Source: a phage. From it: a stretch of 64,000 bases of DNA. Position numbers and translations under genes: made by a program. The notes under the pieces are model-generated. The model saw nothing but the letters and a program-made list of their open reading frames with translations, was not told where the DNA came from and made no database searches. Positions 20,063 through 39,054 of this stretch are shown piece after piece; positions within the stretch are counted from its first letter, which is position 1, and each line of letters begins with the position of its first letter. The stretch lies in the NCBI GenBank assembly GCA_012441205.1, contig GCA_012441205.1_4705.1; one strand, given 5' to 3'.

Positions 20063-20692
20063 TTATTCAACAAACCCTGCATTCAACAGATTGTCGTAAA
20101 CACGATTAGCGACATCAACAGGAGAATGTGTGTTACTGGTATCTATACGCAGCGTTTTCGCGTCGCCGAGATAGTCCATAAAATCCATGTAACGATAACG
20201 TCGTTTATTGAATGTCGCTTCATCGATGTTATCAAACATCTGATGTTTAGCGTGACGAACACGGAACCGCCTTAAATACGTAGGATAGTCGATATCCAGA
20301 TAAACATAGTAAGACGGCATGATAATCGACGGTAGGTTCGGCAACAATGCGTCAAACAACTTAACGTTGGCATCATTAACCTGATAAACATACGTCGAAG
20401 CAATCGAACGATCGCTAAGCACAGTCTTCCCTTCGTTAAGGGCTGGATGAATCACCTTGTTGAAGAGATGATTACGTTGCGACATCATCGCCAATAGTTC
20501 AGTTTCTGGATCGAATCTGTTCGTTGGTGTCTGATCTTCCAGGATAAGTTTACGAATGGCTTCTCCGTAGAGCGTACCACCGGGTTCACGTACGACACAG
20601 ACGTTGTTTAAACGACTGTGTAAAGACGAGATAACCGAACTCTTTCCTGAATAATCCAGACCTTCAATAACGATATATTTATTACGAGACAT
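20063..20692 (-). CDS. tmk: thymidylate kinase (dTMP kinase)
   Basis: KYIVIEGLDYSGKSS (P-loop), REPGGT, VLSDRSIASTYVYQ match the Tmk motif order; start placed at MSRNKY. Confidence 0.8.
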   Translation of the reverse strand: MSRNKYIVIEGLDYSGKSSVISSLHSRLNNVCVVREPGGTLYGEAIRKLILEDQTPTNRFDPETELLAMMSQRNHLFNKVIHPALNEGKTVLSDRSIASTYVYQVNDANVKLFDALLPNLPSIIMPSYYVYLDIDYPTYLRRFRVRHAKHQMFDNIDEATFNKRRYRYMDFMDYLGDAKTLRIDTSNTHSPVDVANRVYDNLLNAGFVE

Positions 20693-20708
20693 TCCCCGCT
20701 CCAATTAA

Positions 20709-21935
20709 CTACTTCGTTTTCGCCGTTATCGGCTGCGATACTGTAATCTCGACCCGATCGACATCGGTACGTTTAACGATGATAAGGCTGCGTTCATCAC
20801 CGAATGGTTCTGAGATCTTACAAGCCTCTTTAAGATTTTCGAGAATCGTGCCATGGGGTTCAAACACCGCAAAACCGGAACTAGCGTCGATTCTTATTAA
20901 ATATACACGCACATTGTTTACGGTAATGGTGTCATCCGTCTTGAACCCACAGCAGGAGGGTAGACAGAACTGACCATTAACGCAATTAGCTAAGTATGCC
21001 TCACCACCGAACATTTCTATTAACGTCACCGGTTTAAATGTTTTCTCTGGGAAAGCATTATTAAGAATATCGTTTCCATTCACAAACCAGATCGTTACTT
21101 TATCTTCGGAATACGCTAGTCTGTATGGTTGGGTTGCGGACGCCTGCGCTTTATGCTGGTTAAATAACTTTGATTTTGTCGCAATCACAGCACGACCTTG
21201 GGCGTCAAAGTACAGAACTTCATACCCAACACATCCGATAAACACGCGACGGTTATTAAGTTCCGGAATTCTGACTACTAACGCATTACCATCTTCCGTC
21301 GGTGTAATACCACGTAGGATGATAGATTCGTTGTTCAATGTTGAGTTGCTCACGATGACGCTTCGCATTACCGCTGGCGACACTATTTCATCTGCTGCAG
21401 GTTCAAGTTGCTCCGCTGTTACAGTCACGGATCTGTCTTCCTTTTCAACTGGCCAGTTGAAAAGGATTGTTTTATTAAGACAAACAATTGGGGTAATTTC
21501 GCCGATACTCCGTATCTTGACTGAGGGGCAATTGCACACATACGGAACAAAAACATCAATATCGTTGGTCGCTTCTTCAAGCATGCTAGCATACGCCATT
21601 GCTTCGGGACGATCGGTGAGATGAATAACAGCATAGACGATATCGTCTTTTAACCACGCACGTTTCACTCGTCCTATAACACGATTGATGTCTACAATAA
21701 CTCTCTGAGCTTTCATCTCCCATTTTACTGCATCAGTACCACCCGCAACCACGTTCGGTTTATCCGTGTTTACACGATGAAGGAAACTATTGATTATTTC
21801 CTCATCGATCTGGATATCCTTTCTCGCAAAATTCAACAACGGAATAACGAACTCATTGTTACCGCACTTCTCTGCTCCGCGAATGATAGGAGTACACTTC
21901 TTGTTCTCATCTGATCCCCAGATAACTTTAGTCAT
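20709..21935 (-). CDS. hypothetical protein
   Basis: Track ORF 20709..21962; ATG at 21935 has AAGGAAAC upstream. No motif recognised. Confidence 0.55.
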   Translation of the reverse strand: MTKVIWGSDENKKCTPIIRGAEKCGNNEFVIPLLNFARKDIQIDEEIINSFLHRVNTDKPNVVAGGTDAVKWEMKAQRVIVDINRVIGRVKRAWLKDDIVYAVIHLTDRPEAMAYASMLEEATNDIDVFVPYVCNCPSVKIRSIGEITPIVCLNKTILFNWPVEKEDRSVTVTAEQLEPAADEIVSPAVMRSVIVSNSTLNNESIILRGITPTEDGNALVVRIPELNNRRVFIGCVGYEVLYFDAQGRAVIATKSKLFNQHKAQASATQPYRLAYSEDKVTIWFVNGNDILNNAFPEKTFKPVTLIEMFGGEAYLANCVNGQFCLPSCCGFKTDDTITVNNVRVYLIRIDASSGFAVFEPHGTILENLKEACKISEPFGDERSLIIVKRTDVDRVEITVSQPITAKTK

Positions 21936-21968
21936 TTTCTGTTTCCTTCTTGGGTTTTGCACAAGTTT

Positions 21969-22583
21969 CTAACGGCGTTTTGTACCGACCTTCCCATTTC
22001 GATGGTCATCAAGAATACGCCATTCTTCGAACAGGAGTTCGGCTGCGAAATAACCTACAGCGATGCTGTCTATCGCATGCTCATCAAGATTCGCTAACAC
22101 AACACCGTTTCTGGGTGTGATGTTCATGAGGTTCAACACTTTCTGGCGAACATCGTCCTTACCAACACGGGACGTCATAATCCCAACAGCGCGTTTTGCG
22201 CTTCGGTTATCAACCCCTAAGAAAGATACCGTAGGATCAAAATCGATAACCGTTGTATGAATCGCTGAAAACAGCTCGCTGAGCGCCATACCGCTTTGCT
22301 TGAAACGACCGATGAATGGCGTCTCACAAGCGACCGCTTGCGGCTGGTACTCTTGCAATAACGTTGTCAGTGAACGACGGTGTTCTTGGATACGTGCGGC
22401 ACGATTACCGTATCCAAGCGCAATATCGCCATCGGGATCATATCGACGTGAAGCGTGCCATGTCCCTGCATACAGCAGTTCAATATCTTCGACACGCACG
22501 TCCAAACGTAGTAACGACGCACCGAGTGTATCGGTGCCAGGGTCGATTGCCAGAATATCGTAAGCGTATTCTGGTGGGATCAT
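21969..22583 (-). CDS. RuvC-like Holliday-junction resolvase
   Basis: ILAIDPGTDTLG (cf. RuvC ILGIDPGSRVTG), acidic E in ACETPF, and C-terminal DEHAIDSIAVG (cf. DAADALAIAI); start overlaps upstream stop as ATGA. Confidence 0.65.
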   Translation of the reverse strand: MIPPEYAYDILAIDPGTDTLGASLLRLDVRVEDIELLYAGTWHASRRYDPDGDIALGYGNRAARIQEHRRSLTTLLQEYQPQAVACETPFIGRFKQSGMALSELFSAIHTTVIDFDPTVSFLGVDNRSAKRAVGIMTSRVGKDDVRQKVLNLMNITPRNGVVLANLDEHAIDSIAVGYFAAELLFEEWRILDDHRNGKVGTKRR

Positions 22584-23395
22584 GGTGTTACAACAGCCTC
22601 TACTGACCATGGGAAGGTTTTCGCAACAACACCTTCCAGGAAGCGTTCAACTTCCGATTGCTCATACACCGAAAGCTTTTCGAACGGCGTTTGGTCTTCG
22701 GTTAAACCTATCGCGTGAATAGGACCCAGGTCTTTAACCAGAGTGACTTCGCCTTTAACGCCTTCGCGTTTAACGATGATCGCATGATCATTAACCTTGG
22801 GATCATACAGCACGCGCATCATGGTTACCGCGTCATCCGGTTCATGACCGAAATCGATGGCAACACGAGCATTCGTCCCTTCATCATCCAGAAGCTTGCT
22901 CAGCGCTTTACAACGGTCTTCAATCCAATCCAACGCAACCACGGTTTCTTGGCGTAGCTGAACCTCAACTTCTTTTCCTTGTTCGTCGATACGTTTCACG
23001 GTAACAAAATCGTGTAATAGGCGGTCAGGAAGGAGGGAAGCAATAAGCTCAATGTTGGGTTCAGGTTTTTCGTTTTCCAGAATGATGGTCGCTTGTGCGT
23101 CCAGATGTTCTTTAAAACGGATGTAGCGCGTTAATCGCAGAACTTCATCTTGGGATTTTGCGTCTTCGGGAATAATCTCCGTCATGACGTTATAAATCTT
23201 TTCAGCGAACGTCGGAATTACGGTGATTGTAATTCGTGCTGGTGTACCACGCTCCTGGTACTCATCGGCTAACTTCTTCGCCATCCCGTTAAAGTAGGTC
23301 TGGAGAAACGGTTGCTGCGTTAAAAACATTTTCTCCAGATCGGAATAGCGATGCTTGCGTGCATGGCCTAGCTTCTTCATGGGTTTTTTCATCAA
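22580..23395 (-). CDS. hypothetical protein (no metallophosphatase motifs, so not an obvious SbcD/Mre11)
   Basis: 271-aa ORF between the SbcC-like gene and the RuvC-like gene. Confidence 0.55.
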   Translation of the reverse strand: MMKKPMKKLGHARKHRYSDLEKMFLTQQPFLQTYFNGMAKKLADEYQERGTPARITITVIPTFAEKIYNVMTEIIPEDAKSQDEVLRLTRYIRFKEHLDAQATIILENEKPEPNIELIASLLPDRLLHDFVTVKRIDEQGKEVEVQLRQETVVALDWIEDRCKALSKLLDDEGTNARVAIDFGHEPDDAVTMMRVLYDPKVNDHAIIVKREGVKGEVTLVKDLGPIHAIGLTEDQTPFEKLSVYEQSEVERFLEGVVAKTFPWSVEAVVTP

Positions 23396-23413
23396 CAGAA
23401 ATCCTTATTTGTC

Positions 23414-25933
23414 TTAAATAATCGTGACGTGTTCGTTATATGTTTCAGGGAGAATGATGTTCGTTTTATCAAGAACCATACACTCGGCTTTACGGAATGA
23501 TGCATGGTTGATCACATAGTGACTGATGAACCACACCTGGCTTACGCGGTGACCATCAACCAGACGACGAACAAAATCCATGGCATTAGATTGGTGCTGC
23601 GGATCAAATGTTGATGCGAATTCATCTAACATCAACGGATAATCCGTAAACCCCTTGTAATGCATCATCGCGATGATGAACGCGATATTGATAATTTCCT
23701 TTTGTCCCTTACTCCCATAAACAATATCTTTTCGCGGTGTCGGATACTTCTCAGTTAAAAGCGGAAAACGATAGTTCAATCCTTGCGCGTCGATAGCACA
23801 CGGGAGTATCTGAAGTTGGTATTCCCAAATACTCGCAATGATGCCGTTCATGTACTCAACGAACGCGTTGATGGGACCCGCAATTGTTTCGGCAATCAGT
23901 CCGTTGGATGGACTCAACTCATCCAGAACAAGTTGTGCGTAACTGAGCTGTTCTTCCACCTCTTTTTGTGTCGTTTCCAACTGAGCCAGAAGCTGCTGGT
24001 CGGTTTTAGCTTCCTGTAGTTGCTGTTCGACATGACTTATTCGGCGAACTGTATCAGACATCGCAGCACGTAACGATTTCGTGTAGAGGTGTTGCAGATA
24101 CTCTAACCACAGTTGCGTTAACGCTTTATCGCTGTTATCAGAACGTACCTGATCTTCCATAATCGCCGTAATGGTTTCCAATCTACCTTCCGTAGCTGTG
24201 ATGGCTTGTGTTAACCGCTCAACGGTTGTTAACAACTCTGTCCTGTTCTTATAAAGCAATTCTCGACGTTGCTGTAACGGTTCAACATCAACCGCTTGTA
24301 CACGTTCGAGCATGCCTTGAAGATGTTTACGTTCTTGTTCGGCTTGTGTATAACGTGCGAGTTTCTCGAATGCAAGCAACCAATCATTAATGATTCCAAT
24401 GCTGCGGAATCCTAATCCGTTTTTACGTCCTTCTTCCAGCAGATTGTCCCACATGGGTTTAATGGCGTAATAATCCTTCGTCCAACGTGTTAACTGACGA
24501 TGTTGTTCCATCCAGAGCGTATAACGCTGAACCTTCTCGCTAAGCTCAGCTAACGATTTCTCTTGTTCTTCAACCCAAGCACGGCCTTTCTGAATGCGTT
24601 GTTCAATACTCGCTTTGCTGGTCTTTTCCGTTTCACCAACATGAAAGCGATAATTGCATTTTGGACAGCTGGTCTGGGGTTGATGATTCAGATGGTCGAG
24701 ATGCGCTTCCAAATCGGCTAACGCATGTTTCGCGTTACGCAAACGCATTCTTGCTGCCTCTTCCTCCTTGATGTAAGCTTCAGCATCGTAAACATGATAG
24801 GTGTTGTCGGTATCAATCCATTCTTGCAATAGTTCCGTTAACGGAGCCTGAACTTGTGTGAGCTGTTGTAAACAAACCGCAGCGTCCAGATTCATCGTTA
24901 AAAGCTCACCTGGATGATCTTGCTGAAGTTGTTCGTCCAAACATGCAATGCGGGCTTTAATTTGATCGATATCACCTTCGCCAGACTGTTTCAACTGGTC
25001 AAGGATATTATCGATACCCAACAGCTCGTCAACCTGACTTTCGAGTTTTGCATTCGCATTCGCGAGTTGCTCTCTTAGTTCAGCCAGATTCTGCTGTTCT
25101 TGTTGCGATGTTCCTCCTTGGTAACGAACAACCGCACGAAGAAGCTCGCGATTAAAATGATGGGCACGTTGTGCGGATTCCAGAAGCTGTCGTTGATCAA
25201 CATCGCTATCGAATAACGGCAATCCCATCATCGCTTCGAGCGCTGAGCGTTGCTGTTTTAACTCTGCTTCCAATCCCTGGTGGTCGGTGCCCGTGTATTT
25301 CGCTTCAATGCGCTGTGATGTTTCAACCAACTTATTCAGTGTATGCTCATTCACCGCTTTCAGTGAACGTACTTGTTGCTTAACAACCTGAAACAACTCG
25401 AGCGCATAATCGACGTTAACCGGACATATCTGTGTTAATCGTTCGCGGCGTTTCATCGGTCCCATTTCGGTGAACTGATAAGCCGTTTCGTAACCTAGCA
25501 ACAAACGAATGGTGTCATCATTAAGTTCGAAATGTTCTTCAATCAGTTTCCATTGGGCCGGTTGTGTGCCACCACCGTTCAGGTTCTCGCTGTCGTTAAC
25601 GTAGAACTCATGCTTAAACCCTTTTTCTAAACGACTGATAAGACGGTATTGCTTATTACGGTGTTCGCAGCGGTACTCGTAATACCCGTCTTTATCAAAA
25701 TCAGCACGCTCAGGAACGGTCGGATACAGCAAAGGCAATAGACTACTCTTACCGGAACCATTACTGCCTAAAATGAGTTGTACGGGATTATCTGGCCGGA
25801 TGACCAGCTCCCGAATCATCCCGGTATCAAAACGATTGAATCCACGTAAGTGGAGATAGGTGCATCGCATGCTATGATAATCCTTCTTCGATACCTTCTG
25901 AACCACGGGTTCAGAATGCGAAGCTGAAGCCAT
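23414..25933 (-). CDS. SbcC/Rad50-like SMC-family ATPase with zinc-hook
   Basis: N-terminal LILGSNGSGKSSLL (Walker A), long coiled-coil middle with CPKC hook motif, C-terminal LMLDEFAS (Walker B). Functional start may be internal Met at 25870. Confidence 0.7.
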   Translation of the reverse strand: MASASHSEPVVQKVSKKDYHSMRCTYLHLRGFNRFDTGMIRELVIRPDNPVQLILGSNGSGKSSLLPLLYPTVPERADFDKDGYYEYRCEHRNKQYRLISRLEKGFKHEFYVNDSENLNGGGTQPAQWKLIEEHFELNDDTIRLLLGYETAYQFTEMGPMKRRERLTQICPVNVDYALELFQVVKQQVRSLKAVNEHTLNKLVETSQRIEAKYTGTDHQGLEAELKQQRSALEAMMGLPLFDSDVDQRQLLESAQRAHHFNRELLRAVVRYQGGTSQQEQQNLAELREQLANANAKLESQVDELLGIDNILDQLKQSGEGDIDQIKARIACLDEQLQQDHPGELLTMNLDAAVCLQQLTQVQAPLTELLQEWIDTDNTYHVYDAEAYIKEEEAARMRLRNAKHALADLEAHLDHLNHQPQTSCPKCNYRFHVGETEKTSKASIEQRIQKGRAWVEEQEKSLAELSEKVQRYTLWMEQHRQLTRWTKDYYAIKPMWDNLLEEGRKNGLGFRSIGIINDWLLAFEKLARYTQAEQERKHLQGMLERVQAVDVEPLQQRRELLYKNRTELLTTVERLTQAITATEGRLETITAIMEDQVRSDNSDKALTQLWLEYLQHLYTKSLRAAMSDTVRRISHVEQQLQEAKTDQQLLAQLETTQKEVEEQLSYAQLVLDELSPSNGLIAETIAGPINAFVEYMNGIIASIWEYQLQILPCAIDAQGLNYRFPLLTEKYPTPRKDIVYGSKGQKEIINIAFIIAMMHYKGFTDYPLMLDEFASTFDPQHQSNAMDFVRRLVDGHRVSQVWFISHYVINHASFRKAECMVLDKTNIILPETYNEHVTII

Positions 25934-25984: not shown

Positions 25985-27073
25985 ATGAGCGACCTGGCAA
26001 CAGACAATCGCACAAAAGGGAGTCAGCTAGCTCCAGACAACAACGTAAGCGTTTTCCGTATCTATGCCTTGGGTACTGTTGCTGCCGACTTTTCCAATAA
26101 AAGTCTGGAGGAAGATCCTAACCAGACGCTGGAGGTCTTTCTTGATGAGATGATGTCAGGCGCTGATGGGAAAGTTGAAGCGGTGGGAAGCGTTAAAGAA
26201 GTCAGTGCAACAGACGCTCAAGGGAACAGCTATACGGCGAAAGCGGCAACAACAACCAGCATACAGTGTTACTGGTTACCCTTCGGCAGTAACCGGATGA
26301 CAGCACCTAACTTGAGGAAAGGTCAGCGTGTGGTGGTTTGGCGTACCGCGGATGAAGAACAACTCTATTGGCAACCCAAAGGAGGGGATAGCGAGCTGAT
26401 GACCATGGAATCGGTTATCCTCACCGTCAGCGCACGTCCTAGCGCCAAGAAGGACCGTAAATCGATTTCAACGGAAGACTGCTATTACCTAATGGTTGAT
26501 ACCTTCCTCAAGAAAGCGGTTATCGGCACCAGCGCACAGCTTGGTGAAGTTACCCAAGTCTACATGGAACTTAATCTGGACGAGGGTTACCTACAGGTTG
26601 CGGACAGCGTTCATCAAAATCTGTTGTTACTCCATTTTGTCGAGCATATGCTGCGTTATCAAAACCAGGACGACAGCATCATCGACGTGACAAAAAAGAA
26701 CATCACGTTCCAGTGCGAGGATACGCTCAAAGCAATCGCTAAGAACGATATCCGAATGAAAGCAAAAAATATTTATACGGAATGTGAGAACTTTGAACGT
26801 ACCAGCAAAACAGAAAGCGTTACGAGTCAGAATGTTTCTTTGAAGTGTGATCGTTACACCGCGCAAGTATCAGGACAGACCACGTTTAAATGTCCTAATA
26901 CGGTATTCACTGGAGCTGTAAGCTTCACAGGTGAAGACGGAAACACGATGACGTTGAATGGGAACTTCGTACACATCGCAGGCTCTTGGCGTTCACCAAC
27001 CGGAACAAACGTATACACCCACGATCACGGTGGTGTAGATCGTGGTAGCGGTCGTACAGACCCGTTCCAATAA
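25985..27073 (+). CDS. hypothetical protein, possible baseplate central-spike (gpV-like) with His-rich apex
   Basis: AGGAG 8 nt upstream of ATG; C-terminal NVYTHDHGGVDRGSGRTDP recalls the HxH iron-binding tip of P2 gpV / phi92 gp138-type spikes (from memory). Confidence 0.3.
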   Translation: MSDLATDNRTKGSQLAPDNNVSVFRIYALGTVAADFSNKSLEEDPNQTLEVFLDEMMSGADGKVEAVGSVKEVSATDAQGNSYTAKAATTTSIQCYWLPFGSNRMTAPNLRKGQRVVVWRTADEEQLYWQPKGGDSELMTMESVILTVSARPSAKKDRKSISTEDCYYLMVDTFLKKAVIGTSAQLGEVTQVYMELNLDEGYLQVADSVHQNLLLLHFVEHMLRYQNQDDSIIDVTKKNITFQCEDTLKAIAKNDIRMKAKNIYTECENFERTSKTESVTSQNVSLKCDRYTAQVSGQTTFKCPNTVFTGAVSFTGEDGNTMTLNGNFVHIAGSWRSPTGTNVYTHDHGGVDRGSGRTDPFQ

Positions 27074-30111: not shown

Positions 30112-30890
30112 GCGAACGTTTCTCCTGTAATGTGTTGCGGATGGCGTAGCATGGTAGCATCCCATTGTACGATCTGGCTTCGGCTTACCCGCATCATGAT
30201 GGATTCGTCATCAAGCCCCTGTTGCGCAACCGGCAACCAACGTTCCCCAAGCACCTTCGCTTCAACACGTTTCTTGCGTGGGTTGTAACGCACCTCGCTA
30301 ACCCAAGCGAATCCAAGCGGATGGACTACCCGTGGATAAAACATGCGAAGCAATTGATGCATCCGATCCGTTGCCTCCAATTTGCCATCCACCATGTAAG
30401 GTTTCACCATGGTAAGCTTTTTGGTGTAATACGTTCCAACGGTATGGTTACGCCAACTTGGCAAGGCATGATCCCCTTCTCTCAGTTTGCTATCCGAGTT
30501 CATTGACCAGACCTGCTGTTTACCGGCCAGCATCGCGTACTGCCGATCAACGCAACGAACCCGATCGGCGAACAATGGATCCAGGACATCATCCACCGCG
30601 CCCTTATTGCGATAACCGTGATGTACCACCAACCTGCTTGCGCTCATCGATGCGGGATGCTGGCTCTTATGCGCATACAGCCCTCCGTCACCGCGAGCGT
30701 CGTAAAGATAACCGCATGCGCCACGCCATATCACCTTGCCTACGGTTCTCTCGTCTTCAAGCAGCATCGTCGGCCCATCAAGCAAATTGGTGAACCACTG
30801 CACCTTCACGCATTCCGCTTGGACATGCTCAGGTAATGCCTGATACTCTTTTTGGGTGTATAAGGTATCAAAAATGATTTCTTCGTTCAT
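30108..30890 (-). CDS. hypothetical protein, first gene after the AT-rich control region
   Basis: 260-aa ORF; no motif recognised. Confidence 0.55.
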   Translation of the reverse strand: MNEEIIFDTLYTQKEYQALPEHVQAECVKVQWFTNLLDGPTMLLEDERTVGKVIWRGACGYLYDARGDGGLYAHKSQHPASMSASRLVVHHGYRNKGAVDDVLDPLFADRVRCVDRQYAMLAGKQQVWSMNSDSKLREGDHALPSWRNHTVGTYYTKKLTMVKPYMVDGKLEATDRMHQLLRMFYPRVVHPLGFAWVSEVRYNPRKKRVEAKVLGERWLPVAQQGLDDESIMMRVSRSQIVQWDATMLRHPQHITGETFA

Positions 30891-31717
30891 TTAAAAAGTT
30901 CCTCTGTTTCACGTTAATTAAACAACGTATTGATTTCTATTTGACAGAATACGAACATCGTACGTATCTATCACTTAGGTAACGCTTACGCGTCGCGTTC
31001 ATGATACCATGCATCATGAAGGTAATATAGCCGTGAAAGGATTTGTGTTAACGCAAGGGTTTTGTTTGTTTTTTAAGAAGGGATGGATTTAGAAGAGGTG
31101 TTTCAAGGAAGGTAAACGAGAATAGGTATTTTGATTTAAGTAAGATGTTATCTGTATCCGTTAGAAGTGTATTGTCTAAGTTATCTTGTTTATCTTAGGT
31201 TTAATCGTTTTTATCTTGGTATGTTTAAGTTGTTTTTATTTAACTGTTAAAATGCTTATCTTCAAAACAATGGATAACATGTGTTTACTACGCTCGTTGA
31301 GTTATAACTCAACGGTAACACATGTCATCTGTGCATTACACTACGTTACATGCTAGTTAAATCGGATAACTCAAAAAAACATTTGTGATACTCTTCTTCA
31401 CGTTGTTCATCAGAGTATCTCGTCTATACTCATTGCATTCGTATACGACATAACCGTTACACGCTAACGCTACGCTTATAGCTTGATAACTCTAAGGATA
31501 AAAACATAAACTCGCTTCGCTCGTTTAGTTTTTCTTTTTCTTAGAGTTATCCTGTTGCTCGTCTCTAAAGGACTTCGCTCCTCCCCCGTCCCCCGAAGGG
31601 GCCGAGGTCGTGGAAATTTTACTTTCCAAATACATTTACAACATCTGTAAACTTTTACTCCAGGTACTTAATCTTATCATTAGAAATTATAAAAGAGAAA
31701 ATAAACACAAACATAAA
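30891..31717. other. AT-rich ORF-free region with direct and inverted repeats (candidate origin / promoter cluster / ncRNA locus)
   Basis: About 830 bp with no ORF of 60 aa or more; five TTATCT(T/G) repeats (31150-31260), GGATAAC/GAGTTATC repeats, palindrome CGTTGAGTTATAACTCAACG; no tRNA-like T-loop seen. Confidence 0.5.
30976..31038 (-). promoter_or_regulatory. tandem promoter-like motifs (TTAGGTAACGCTTACGCGTC and GAAGGTAATATAGCCGTGAAA on + strand)
   Basis: Minus strand reads CACGGCTATATTACCTTC; 90-130 bp upstream of minus gene 30108..30890. Confidence 0.45.
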
Positions 31718-36456: not shown

Positions 36457-39054
36457 TTATAACGTGACTGTACCTAATTTGGTTGTCTTATTGAGATTAA
36501 TGACTGAGATCTGGGTATCGCTGGTCGTGATGGTGCCGATATTAACGCGCTGTCCTTTATCATCCTCTTGCTTGTGGATGGTTAATTCCAGCTCTAACTG
36601 GTTACCATTAGGAACAACGGAAACGTACCATGTTTTATTACCTGGTGAGCTATTATAGTCTTTTAGGTTATAATGGCCTTTAGGTAAGGTCATGGCCTTA
36701 CCAGCAAACAAACATGAAATATCCTCGTTGATATAAACGTCGAAACCGGAAGAAGCGATGACTGTTGAGGCCATTATTCGAGACGCGACGATACCACGAT
36801 TATAGTCGTCGATTGTGGTACCTATGACATTGAATACTTGCCCCCCGTTACCCATAATGGTCGATTCGCTAGTGTTTACGTAGCCGATACCCCAAGTCGG
36901 ATGAATGTTCCAGCGGTACCCACTGTTTTGTAAATATGTATACAAGTCTTCATAGGCCGCATTCACCCAACTACCATCACTTTTTCGTCCAGCCCTAAAT
37001 TGGAATGTATTGCTATTTCCAGATGTTCCTCGGCCAAGAGGGACATGTCCCGCCACTAACCAACCATCTGTACTTTGCATATACGCGAACGAACCGTACG
37101 CTCTGTTATCGGCCCAAATATTCACGGTATCAACACGTTCAACGTAGGCGATCACCTTTTGTACGCCGGTTATAGCGATCGAACCCTTGCGTGCCGACAC
37201 ACTAACTTCAGCAATTACGACACCCATTTTCCGCTGGCTGCTGTTAAATCCCAATACAACCATTAAACACGGTGCGTTTGTTGTTTCTGGAGGAATCGTT
37301 ATCGATTGTTTCCAGTCGGTGATTCCGCTGAGTTTTGTTCCAGTATATGCGTTCCAGACGGTTTGTCCAGCCGATTTCAGATTCTGTTCAGAAATAGAAA
37401 TGGCCTCGCCCTCAGGGATTAACGTGTCGTAATTGAGACCAATGTTGCTGGATAGACGAAGGTCGTTTAAGTAAGATCCGCTGAGTGTGACGTTACCGTT
37501 ACGATAAATTGTCAAGAATGGCGCAGCCAGGGAGTTTAATACCGTAAAGTTACTCGATGGCATGAAACCATAGACATCGATGCCATTACCGTGGTAATGG
37601 TAGTTTGTCCAACTACCTTGATAACTTACGGTACGTGCATCGTAGTGGCCTTGTCCAAGACCGCTGCTGGATAACGTGTATATCTTGGTTGCTGATAGAA
37701 ATGCGAGATATCCATGCGCTGCCAGAGCTCCAACTACCCTGTCTTTTATCTTTAACCAAGCTGAAGTATACAACGTACTGTCGGGATTCATTTTGGCTAT
37801 TTCATCGTAAGCCGTGCCTGCGAAGTTTCCGATAGTGTACGTACGTATATCCGGCTGTCCGTTATTGTCGTTCTGTACAGCAATTACTTGCCCAGAATCA
37901 TTGATATCGATATTACCGATACAGTTGTGAGCCCCCCACACCCAATATCCATCTTTATAATTGGATTCTCCTTGTGTAAATGTCGACGGTCCTCGCCACG
38001 CGATGCCGTTCGATTCGGCGTAGTAGGTAGCTTGTCCCGATCCTGGATTCATGGCGTATCTGTTATTGGTCGGGTCAAAATCGATGTAAAAATGATGCAT
38101 TCCTTGACGTTGACGGTTGTCCCGATCATTTGTCCACCACGACGAACCGACCAGAATTCGCGCCTTACCATTTTTTACAGTGGACCATAAACGTATTGCG
38201 GCGCGCCAGACGATTTGACCGATCCCGTTGGACGGGAAACTATTCGTACTGATGCTGTTGCAGACAACGAGCTCGCTGCTGTTGTTTATTTGAGTCCCTT
38301 CAATTGTAACGCCGTTTATGTTAGTAATCAGTGTTGCCGATACACTACCCCCTGTAGGGGCGATAGAGGAACGTTGAACGGTGTAAATTTTTAGTGATAA
38401 TTTATAGCCGCTCCGAATAGCTATACCAATGTAAATAGTTCCGTTAATTTCCCAACAACAAACATCGGGCATTGTTTCTTTGAAATCGGATAAAGCACCG
38501 TCGATATACATCGCAACGTGTTTACTGGCGTCGAATGTGCCGTCCGTTAACGCGATGAACATTTTGGCGTTATTGCCGTTGATATCAGCCGCTAATCCGA
38601 GTAGTATGTTGTTCTGATGACAGTAGATGGCTTTAGGTGCTAGATCCAACATAGCTGGTTGGTACTGTCGGCTTGTTGGTATTACGCTAGTAACTGCACC
38701 ATTTTGATCCGTTTTACAAATAACGTAATATACACCGTGTATGATGCTGTTTGTCGCTGACCTCAGTAGGACGATCGTCCCGTCAGATTCACGACATATA
38801 CCGTAATGGCGATAGTCGGTGATTAAACCGATAGCGCCATCGGCCGAACCTTCGATTGCCAGAGGAAAATAACTTTGGTCCCCAACCTGTTCGATATCGG
38901 TTGCGCCGATATCGATGTATTTTTCCATCTCAGTGTTGAACTCAGCGGTACTGTAGGCACCGAGATCGCTCGCCTTTAGTCCCGTTGGGTTGTCACGACT
39001 GGCGATACGTGTAGTAACGCTACTCACCAGTTCGCTGAACTTTTTCATTGCCAT
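36457..39054 (-). CDS. distal tail fibre / receptor-binding protein candidate
   Basis: 865 aa, Gly/Asn/Ser/Thr/Trp/Tyr-rich; N-terminus carries one degenerate fibre-repeat-like motif (RDNPTGLKASDLG). Confidence 0.6.
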   Translation of the reverse strand: MAMKKFSELVSSVTTRIASRDNPTGLKASDLGAYSTAEFNTEMEKYIDIGATDIEQVGDQSYFPLAIEGSADGAIGLITDYRHYGICRESDGTIVLLRSATNSIIHGVYYVICKTDQNGAVTSVIPTSRQYQPAMLDLAPKAIYCHQNNILLGLAADINGNNAKMFIALTDGTFDASKHVAMYIDGALSDFKETMPDVCCWEINGTIYIGIAIRSGYKLSLKIYTVQRSSIAPTGGSVSATLITNINGVTIEGTQINNSSELVVCNSISTNSFPSNGIGQIVWRAAIRLWSTVKNGKARILVGSSWWTNDRDNRQRQGMHHFYIDFDPTNNRYAMNPGSGQATYYAESNGIAWRGPSTFTQGESNYKDGYWVWGAHNCIGNIDINDSGQVIAVQNDNNGQPDIRTYTIGNFAGTAYDEIAKMNPDSTLYTSAWLKIKDRVVGALAAHGYLAFLSATKIYTLSSSGLGQGHYDARTVSYQGSWTNYHYHGNGIDVYGFMPSSNFTVLNSLAAPFLTIYRNGNVTLSGSYLNDLRLSSNIGLNYDTLIPEGEAISISEQNLKSAGQTVWNAYTGTKLSGITDWKQSITIPPETTNAPCLMVVLGFNSSQRKMGVVIAEVSVSARKGSIAITGVQKVIAYVERVDTVNIWADNRAYGSFAYMQSTDGWLVAGHVPLGRGTSGNSNTFQFRAGRKSDGSWVNAAYEDLYTYLQNSGYRWNIHPTWGIGYVNTSESTIMGNGGQVFNVIGTTIDDYNRGIVASRIMASTVIASSGFDVYINEDISCLFAGKAMTLPKGHYNLKDYNSSPGNKTWYVSVVPNGNQLELELTIHKQEDDKGQRVNIGTITTSDTQISVINLNKTTKLGTVTL

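Follow-up and report, generated by a model that had tools for sequence, protein, structure and literature searches.

The window studied here is a stretch of 64,000 nucleotides of phage DNA, analysed at its full length (contig GCA_012441205.1_4705.1 of NCBI GenBank assembly GCA_012441205.1). Its positions 20063-25933 hold a block of genes that includes an SbcC/Rad50-like ATPase with no obvious SbcD/Mre11 partner beside it. The block is 95.9% identical at the nucleotide level to Escherichia phage vB_EcoM_Goslar (NC_048170), and the whole window aligns to Goslar positions 221389-237307 followed by 1-48075, at 92-98% identity, and therefore crosses the point at which the Goslar record was arbitrarily opened. 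Goslar, a jumbo phage that forms a nucleus, belongs to the Chimalliviridae, and the window comes from a close relative of it, with ~96-97% nucleotide identity. Five co-directional open reading frames (ORFs) on the minus strand, with overlaps or gaps of at most 18 bases, were confirmed in the block; they correspond to Goslar gp012 (annotated as SbcC-like), gp011 (hypothetical), gp010 (RuvC), gp009 (hypothetical) and gp008 (thymidylate kinase), with coordinates given in Table 1. An earlier note on this DNA, made from its letters alone, had placed all five correctly, save that the ATPase probably starts 21 codons further in. The alternative start at Met-22 (ATG at 25870) has an AAGGA Shine-Dalgarno-like sequence 10 nt upstream and yields a protein of 818 aa; it agrees with the Goslar annotation, with independent (metagenomic) gene calls and with the alignment of orthologues, and is most likely the true start.

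The maximal ATPase ORF of 839 aa matched phrog_77 ('SbcC-like subunit', E = 1.2e-74) and Pfam SMC_N (E = 8.7e-10), and its product is 99.2% identical to Goslar gp012. It possesses the bipartite ATP-binding cassette (ABC) ATPase head of Rad50/SbcC proteins, with a Q-loop at Q127 (839-aa numbering) in addition to the head motifs of Table 1, and, at the apex of the insert that separates the two halves, a CxxC hook predicted to bind zinc. Alignment with phiKZ gp165, Erwinia phage RAY gp23 and Ralstonia phage RP12 ORF069 showed no variation in any head motif or in the C-P-x-C of the hook, the four orthologues sharing only 24-28% identity. With a profile built from these four sequences, the best solved structures were archaeal Rad50 (3qku, E = 5e-9), covering both the N- and the C-terminal half, and NCBIfam Rad50_Sulf aligned over residues 369-483, i.e. 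the hook region (E = 2e-6). The central ~510 residues contain 1.8% proline and are rich in Glu, Leu, Gln and Ala. On the strength of the phrog_77 and Pfam matches, the invariant motifs, the matches to Rad50 structures and the NCBIfam alignment over the hook, the assignment to Rad50/SbcC is sound, and the architecture that the earlier note had recognised, with Walker A, CPKC hook and Walker B in their expected places, was borne out. As judged from its sequence, the 839-aa protein is a true Rad50/SbcC-type ATPase and a core protein of the Chimalliviridae.

The gene for a candidate nuclease partner was found through synteny: ORF282 of phage RP12, annotated as 'Nuclease SbcCD D subunit', is part of a conserved block of genes in which gp178 takes the corresponding position in Goslar (Table 1). 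The two proteins share 32% identity over 376 residues (E = 2e-59), and gp178 matched phrog_100 ('SbcD-like subunit', E = 1.8e-40) and is the orthologue of phiKZ gp065 and PhiPA3 gp059. RP12 ORF282 itself exceeds the Pfam Metallophos cut-off. In an alignment of five SbcD-like homologues (Goslar gp178, the RP12 protein, phiKZ gp065, RAY gp238 and the homologue of Bacillus phage PBS1), phosphoesterase motifs I (D20/H22), II (G56-D57..D60), IV (H172-G173) and V (H210/H212) were invariant, and motif III took the variant form G-T-x-x-H-D throughout (G96-T97..H100-D101 in gp178). A profile of the five sequences had as its top solved structures Mre11 of Thermotoga maritima (E = 1e-9), E. coli SbcD and Mre11 of Pyrococcus furiosus, the matched entries including 2q8u/4o24 (Mre11) and 6s6v (SbcD). 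Goslar gp178 combines all five phosphoesterase motifs, the third as a variant, with homology to Mre11/SbcD, and carries behind the phosphoesterase domain a C-terminal extension of ~130 residues, the terminal segment of which is conserved. We regard gp178 as a predicted, divergent SbcD/Mre11-like metallophosphatase, and its label in RefSeq, 'hypothetical protein', as an annotation in need of correction. In Goslar coordinates the gene (at ~163 kb) is ~155 kb away from that of the ATPase; the partner looked absent because the nuclease gene lies outside the 64-kb window.

Within the window, tblastn with Goslar gp178, RP12 SbcD (ORF282) and Goslar gp157 reached a best E of only 0.26, from which we conclude that it contains no SbcD gene, and a motif scan of all window ORFs found no metallophosphatase motif III of the GNH[DE] type. 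The Goslar annotation does not list any SbcD either. Strict metallophosphatase regular expressions, applied to six-frame ORFs of at least 100-120 aa from Goslar and from the window, yielded zero matches; gp178 escaped them because motif III of the phage SbcD family reads GT..HD and not GNH(D/E). When 124 Goslar ORFs of 170-620 aa were scanned with Pfam in two batches, one clear metallophosphoesterase emerged, gp157 (Metallophos_2; NC_048170 140999-141556; phrog_547), which is also the only protein annotated as metallophosphoesterase in Goslar. As a candidate for SbcD, gp157 was rejected: it has 185 aa with a minimal phosphoesterase domain, is distributed sporadically and is not a chimallivirus core gene. 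Members of its family are scattered over phages of Enterococcus and Streptomyces and a few of Erwinia. Motif III of gp157 reads GNWDE, the usual catalytic His being replaced by Trp.

The two genes occur together. By tblastn over phage records, the SbcD-like gene was detected in 315 records and the SbcC-like gene in 287, with the following counts per host genus (SbcD-like/SbcC-like): Pseudomonas 81/81, Erwinia 62/60, Salmonella 24/24, Vibrio 23/22, Serratia 21/21, Aeromonas 19/19, Klebsiella 16/16 and Ralstonia 13/13. The SbcD-like matches in excess are distant and come from jumbo phages of Bacillus and Staphylococcus. The Goslar-like IMG/VR contig IMGVR_UViG_3300011560_000001 carries both genes, and in a Salmonella assembly a gp009 homologue (ACI5OW_003089) and an SbcD-like gene (ACI5OW_003249) share the locus-tag prefix, the longest contig listed for each being 241,126 bp. 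A divergent SbcD/Mre11-like gene was found in Goslar and in every related genome examined, so that ATPase and predicted cognate nuclease are encoded by the same genome in Goslar and in Goslar-like contigs.

Published work on related phages describes the same arrangement. In SPN3US, phiKZ and their relatives the SbcC and SbcD genes are 'drastically separated'; in SPN3US the SbcC subunit gp186, homologue of phiKZ ORF165, is essential, and gp27 has been named as the SbcD subunit (Thomas et al., 2016; PMC5105663). In the phiKZ-like phage RP12, SbcC (ORF69) and SbcD (ORF282) are likewise encoded far apart (PMC5105663; PMC5468394), and nearly all jumbo phages are reported to encode both subunits (Iyer et al., 2021; PMC7824862). 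For phiKZ, orf165 received zero transposon insertions (bioRxiv 2025.11.23.690004), and 065 (as 'nuclease') and 165 have been listed as core genes whose knock-down by antisense gives phenotypes (PMC12571901). Given this published separation and the universality of the pair, the apparent orphan ATPase is a known trait of the phage family; that phiKZ-like phages combine an SbcC-like ATPase with a distant SbcD was already known, the separation having been described in 2016. A search of the literature for biochemical work on the two chimallivirus proteins brought up none.

What is firmly shown comprises the motifs, the homology, the joint occurrence of the two genes and the essentiality published for orthologues. 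We consider it highly probable that the protein is the core Rad50/SbcC-like ATPase of the Chimalliviridae and that its partner is an SbcD/Mre11-like metallophosphatase whose gene lies elsewhere in the genome (Goslar gp178, phiKZ gp065). By analogy with known complexes of this type, two ATPase subunits would dimerise through their ATP-bound heads and through co-ordination of zinc by the CPKC hooks, the gp178-type metallophosphatase would bind to the ATPase heads as a dimer, and the complex would cut hairpins and blocked or free DNA ends in an ATP-dependent manner. As with T4 gp46/gp47, the processed ends could then serve recombination-dependent replication and the repair of the phage chromosome, with RuvC resolving the junctions that would result.

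Several points weigh against this reading. Taken alone, gp178 stays under the Pfam Metallophos cut-off (14.8 vs 21.5 bits, E = 0.04), and its motif III is devoid of the canonical Asn. The SbcD gene of this very phage is one that we infer from Goslar and other Goslar-like genomes; formation of the complex we infer as well, together with its substrate and its action inside the phage nucleus. The putative central coiled coil of the ATPase was judged from composition alone, which is consistent with it, a crude test of hydrophobic periodicity having been uninformative.

The ATPase might instead act without a nuclease, as an SMC-like (structural maintenance of chromosomes) tether or organiser of the phage chromosome in the phage nucleus, which would suit the unlinked positions of the SbcC-like and SbcD-like genes in all chimalliviruses looked at and the weak similarity of the ATPase to the SMC-like ATPases LmuB and RecF. 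Its best structural relatives, however, are Rad50 proteins and its CxxC hook is conserved; moreover, the SbcD-like gene is found in the same genera at near-identical counts, and both are reported as core genes with fitness phenotypes in phiKZ. We therefore hold an action without nuclease to be very unlikely, and keep to the pairing of the ATPase with a distantly encoded SbcD-like protein.

Table 1. Coordinates of the genes, motifs and other features discussed in the text. Positions are those of the window unless another record is named; residues of the ATPase are numbered on the 839-aa ORF.
Feature	Coordinates	Strand	Remarks
SbcC/Rad50-like ABC ATPase	23414..25933	-	maximal ORF 839 aa; orthologue of Goslar gp012, phiKZ gp165 and SPN3US gp186
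Walker A / P-loop GSNGSGKS, residues 56-63	25745..25768	-	invariant in phiKZ gp165, RAY gp23 and RP12 ORF069
CPKC zinc-hook motif (predicted), residues 423-426	24656..24667	-	midpoint of the ~510-residue insert between the ATPase halves
C-terminal ATPase half: signature GSKGQ 740-744, Walker B LMLDE 767-771, H-loop ISH 803-805	23519..23716	-	
SbcD-like gp178, 380 aa (predicted)	Goslar NC_048170 162609-163751	-	annotated as 'hypothetical protein'; outside the window
271-aa protein (Goslar gp011)	22580..23395	-	between the SbcC-like gene and RuvC; overlaps the RuvC start
RuvC-like Holliday junction resolvase, 213 aa (Goslar gp010)	21969..22610	-	IDPG 22-25, CETP 95-98, DEHAIDS 176-182
417-aa ORF (Goslar gp009)	20709..21962	-	called as 408 aa from ATG 21935
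Replaceable cassette, ~525 bp, N-terminal ~173 residues of the 417-aa protein	21416..21942	-	sharp identity boundaries
Thymidylate kinase (Goslar gp008)	20063..20704	-	Pfam Thymidylate_kin E = 9.8e-28; PDB thymidylate kinases down to E = 7.8e-19
Baseplate spike/assembly protein (Goslar gp13)	25985..27073	+	phrog_3216 E = 1.3e-61; divergent from the SbcC-like gene

The two unassigned genes of the block were considered as sources of a partner. Neither the 271-aa protein, called as 270 aa by independent gene calls, nor the 417-aa protein gave a family match in Pfam, PHROG, NCBIfam or PADLOC. Neither contains the metallophosphatase motifs DxH, GDxxD, GNH(D/E), H and GHxH, and there was no Metallophos match at E <= 0.1; the statement of the earlier note that both proteins lack such motifs thus held in family and motif searches alike. 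AlphaFold2 models of the 271-aa protein and of the 408-aa form of the 417-aa protein were of low confidence (predicted local distance difference test, pLDDT, of 46.4 and 47.7, respectively), and Foldseek searches of both against the PDB gave zero credible matches. The only Foldseek lead, a weak resemblance between the T4 gp21 protease and the 408-aa model (template modelling scores, TM-scores, of 0.21 and 0.45 at a probability of 0.99), was rejected, the N-terminal domain being devoid of any invariant His or Ser. Comparison of hidden Markov models of the gp011 and gp009 families with those of the genes downstream of SbcC in RAY, LucasX, phiKZ, RP12 and Noxifer revealed zero similarity.

By tblastn of phage records, the 271-aa protein (gp011) was found in Goslar only, and an exhaustive HMMER search yielded 5 matches in 1.84 billion representatives; its family amounts to 3 clusters in 5.8 billion proteins, and one cluster at 90% identity comprises 302 member sequences. 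Homologues in lineages L024 (45% identity) and L028 (44%) occupy the same place between ATPase and RuvC and again overlap the RuvC start; compared with the window, the ATPase of L028 is 50% and its RuvC 65% identical. This placement directly downstream of the ATPase in three Goslar-clade lineages at 44-45% identity, and the good conservation within Goslar-like phages evident from the 302-member cluster, would be compatible with gp011 being a clade-specific accessory subunit, an alternative nuclease or an adaptor of the ATPase, of RuvC or of both, acting besides SbcD. Against such a role, gp011 bears no nuclease or other family signature, the exhaustive HMMER search returned no homologue outside the Goslar clade although 287 phage records contain the ATPase, none of the genes that follow the ATPase in the five other chimalliviruses is related to gp011, and the gp011 model (pLDDT 46, no credible fold match) is uninformative. 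We rate the role as distinctly unlikely. The related proposal that gp011 is a clade-specific accessory factor coupling the Mre11-Rad50-type complex to junction resolution, as an analogue of an Nbs1-like or CtIP-like adaptor, is unlikely too, if a shade less so.

Between the 417-aa protein and its Goslar counterpart gp009, identity is only 62%; the genes on either side are 96-99% identical. Its family comprises 181 clusters at 90% identity, which are 63-99% identical to the window protein; residues ~20-170 are hypervariable and residues 200-300 nearly invariant. The N-terminal domain falls into two deep types, with pairwise identity down to 19%, and has zero invariant His or Ser. The exact 408-aa protein is also encoded on NCBI contigs of 238 kb and 248 kb, including ABDDKD010000007.1. 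In L024 the slot between RuvC and tmk lacks the gene altogether, and in L028 it holds a 163-aa ORF that resembles the N-terminal domain only; the ATPase is kept in both. A role of gp009 as a novel nuclease partner, for which its membership in the same co-directional block as the ATPase may be cited, is hard to reconcile with this variability, with its loss or truncation beside a retained ATPase and with the failure of all family and motif searches. It is extremely improbable, and we consider it close to refuted.

The 271-aa and 417-aa genes are lineage-specific passengers, and neither is a conserved partner of the ATPase. The earlier note had posed an alternative between a nuclease partner encoded elsewhere and a novel partner among the unassigned neighbours. 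The former is borne out, with gp178 ~155 kb away in Goslar, and the latter is unsupported, gp011 being restricted to a clade and gp009 being accessory. The earlier note had also named the finding that would overturn it, namely a canonical SbcD/Mre11 gene elsewhere in the genome beside neighbours unrelated to the ATPase; this is essentially what Goslar and its relatives present, with an SbcD-like gene at a distance and neighbours that are not conserved partners, the copy in the present genome being extrapolated from theirs. For the biology of these phages the feature matters little, since the ATPase is a recognised core and essential gene. Where a 64-kb window out of a 240-kb genome seems to lack a partner, the remaining genome is the first place to look.

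A more interesting by-product is the hypervariable part of gp009. It coincides with a replaceable cassette (Table 1) that is without nucleotide match in Goslar and in two other Goslar-like genomes. Both of its boundaries are identical in comparisons with three other Goslar-like genomes, and its flanks are 93-98% identical. Just inside one boundary, within the 417-aa coding sequence, lies a perfect 28-bp palindrome, TCCTTTTCAACTGGCCAGTTGAAAAGGA, at 21439-21466. It is followed on the plus strand by a T-rich tract and is terminator-like on the antisense strand; it could serve in recombination or as a site of cleavage. A search for a template repeat corresponding to the variable cassette, as in a diversity-generating retroelement, found none. 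The cassette has the look of a module that diversifies or is exchanged, perhaps in an arms race, and the locus may be under diversifying selection.

The remaining genes of the block received conventional assignments. The RuvC-like ORF scored 26.0 bits with Pfam RuvC (cut-off 22.2) and matched phrog_159 (E = 1.9e-21); its match to RuvC in the PDB was weak (E = 0.016). It has the RNase H-fold domain of RuvC and the acidic residues predicted to be catalytic. The reading of this ORF as RuvC-like and of the adjacent kinase gene as tmk, made in the earlier note, is confirmed by these Pfam scores and by that for the kinase in Table 1. The RuvC-like resolvase and Tmk beside the ATPase are ordinary DNA-metabolism genes, and RuvC, the 271-aa gene and tmk come downstream of the ATPase in the Goslar clade only.

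On the other side of the ATPase, the divergently transcribed gene codes for the counterpart of Goslar gp13, which has been identified as the baseplate spike by electron cryo-microscopy (10.64898/2026.04.21.720040). A divergent gene of similar size occupies the same place in phiKZ (gp164), RAY (gp21), RP12 (ORF067), LucasX (312) and Noxifer (gp166), with annotation as baseplate in RAY and Noxifer and as 'structural protein' in phiKZ. It is the only neighbour of the ATPase with a conserved position in these five phages, all downstream genes being different. A structural gene is thus paired with a DNA-repair gene in every chimallivirus examined.

Poor or absent matches to Goslar were also observed at window positions 36756-38191 and 30454-31013. 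The former stretch falls within an 865-aa ORF (36457-39054, homologue of Goslar gp026) that adjoins a Peptidase_S74 virion protein, and this ORF may be part of a host-recognition module. Many NCBI assemblies of isolates that are labelled E. coli, Salmonella enterica, Shigella flexneri or Shigella sonnei contain Goslar-like genomes as contigs of 235-250 kb; a single variant of the SbcD-like sequence occurs on as many as 60 contigs. For a family that is regarded as strictly lytic, this suggests either frequent carriage in a carrier or pseudolysogenic state or contamination of cultures.

Among known systems, phage T4 likewise encodes a pair, gp46/gp47 (Rad50/Mre11), which serves recombination-dependent replication (cited in PMC5105663 and PMC7824862). 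T4 genes 46 and 47 are adjacent, unlike the separated genes of Goslar-like phages, and gp46, at 63.6 kDa and with a shorter coiled coil, is much shorter than the window ATPase; between the T4 and SPN3US proteins no similarity is detectable by BLASTP (PMC5105663). E. coli SbcCD and the Mre11-Rad50 complexes of archaea and Thermotoga consist of the same two components, a bipartite ABC ATPase with a CxxC hook and a metallophosphatase with five motifs. The cellular sbcCD and Mre11-Rad50 genes, however, form an operon, whereas the phage genes do not, and motif III reads GNH(D/E) in the cellular enzymes and GT..HD in the phage SbcD-like family. The closest parallels are phiKZ gp165/gp065 and SPN3US gp186/gp27, an orthologous pair with the same motifs, the same CPxC hook and genes that are likewise far apart; by tblastn, the phiKZ orthologues are ~26% (SbcC-like) and ~31% (SbcD-like) identical. 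With respect to phiKZ and SPN3US, the genes downstream of the ATPase differ, and nothing essential does.

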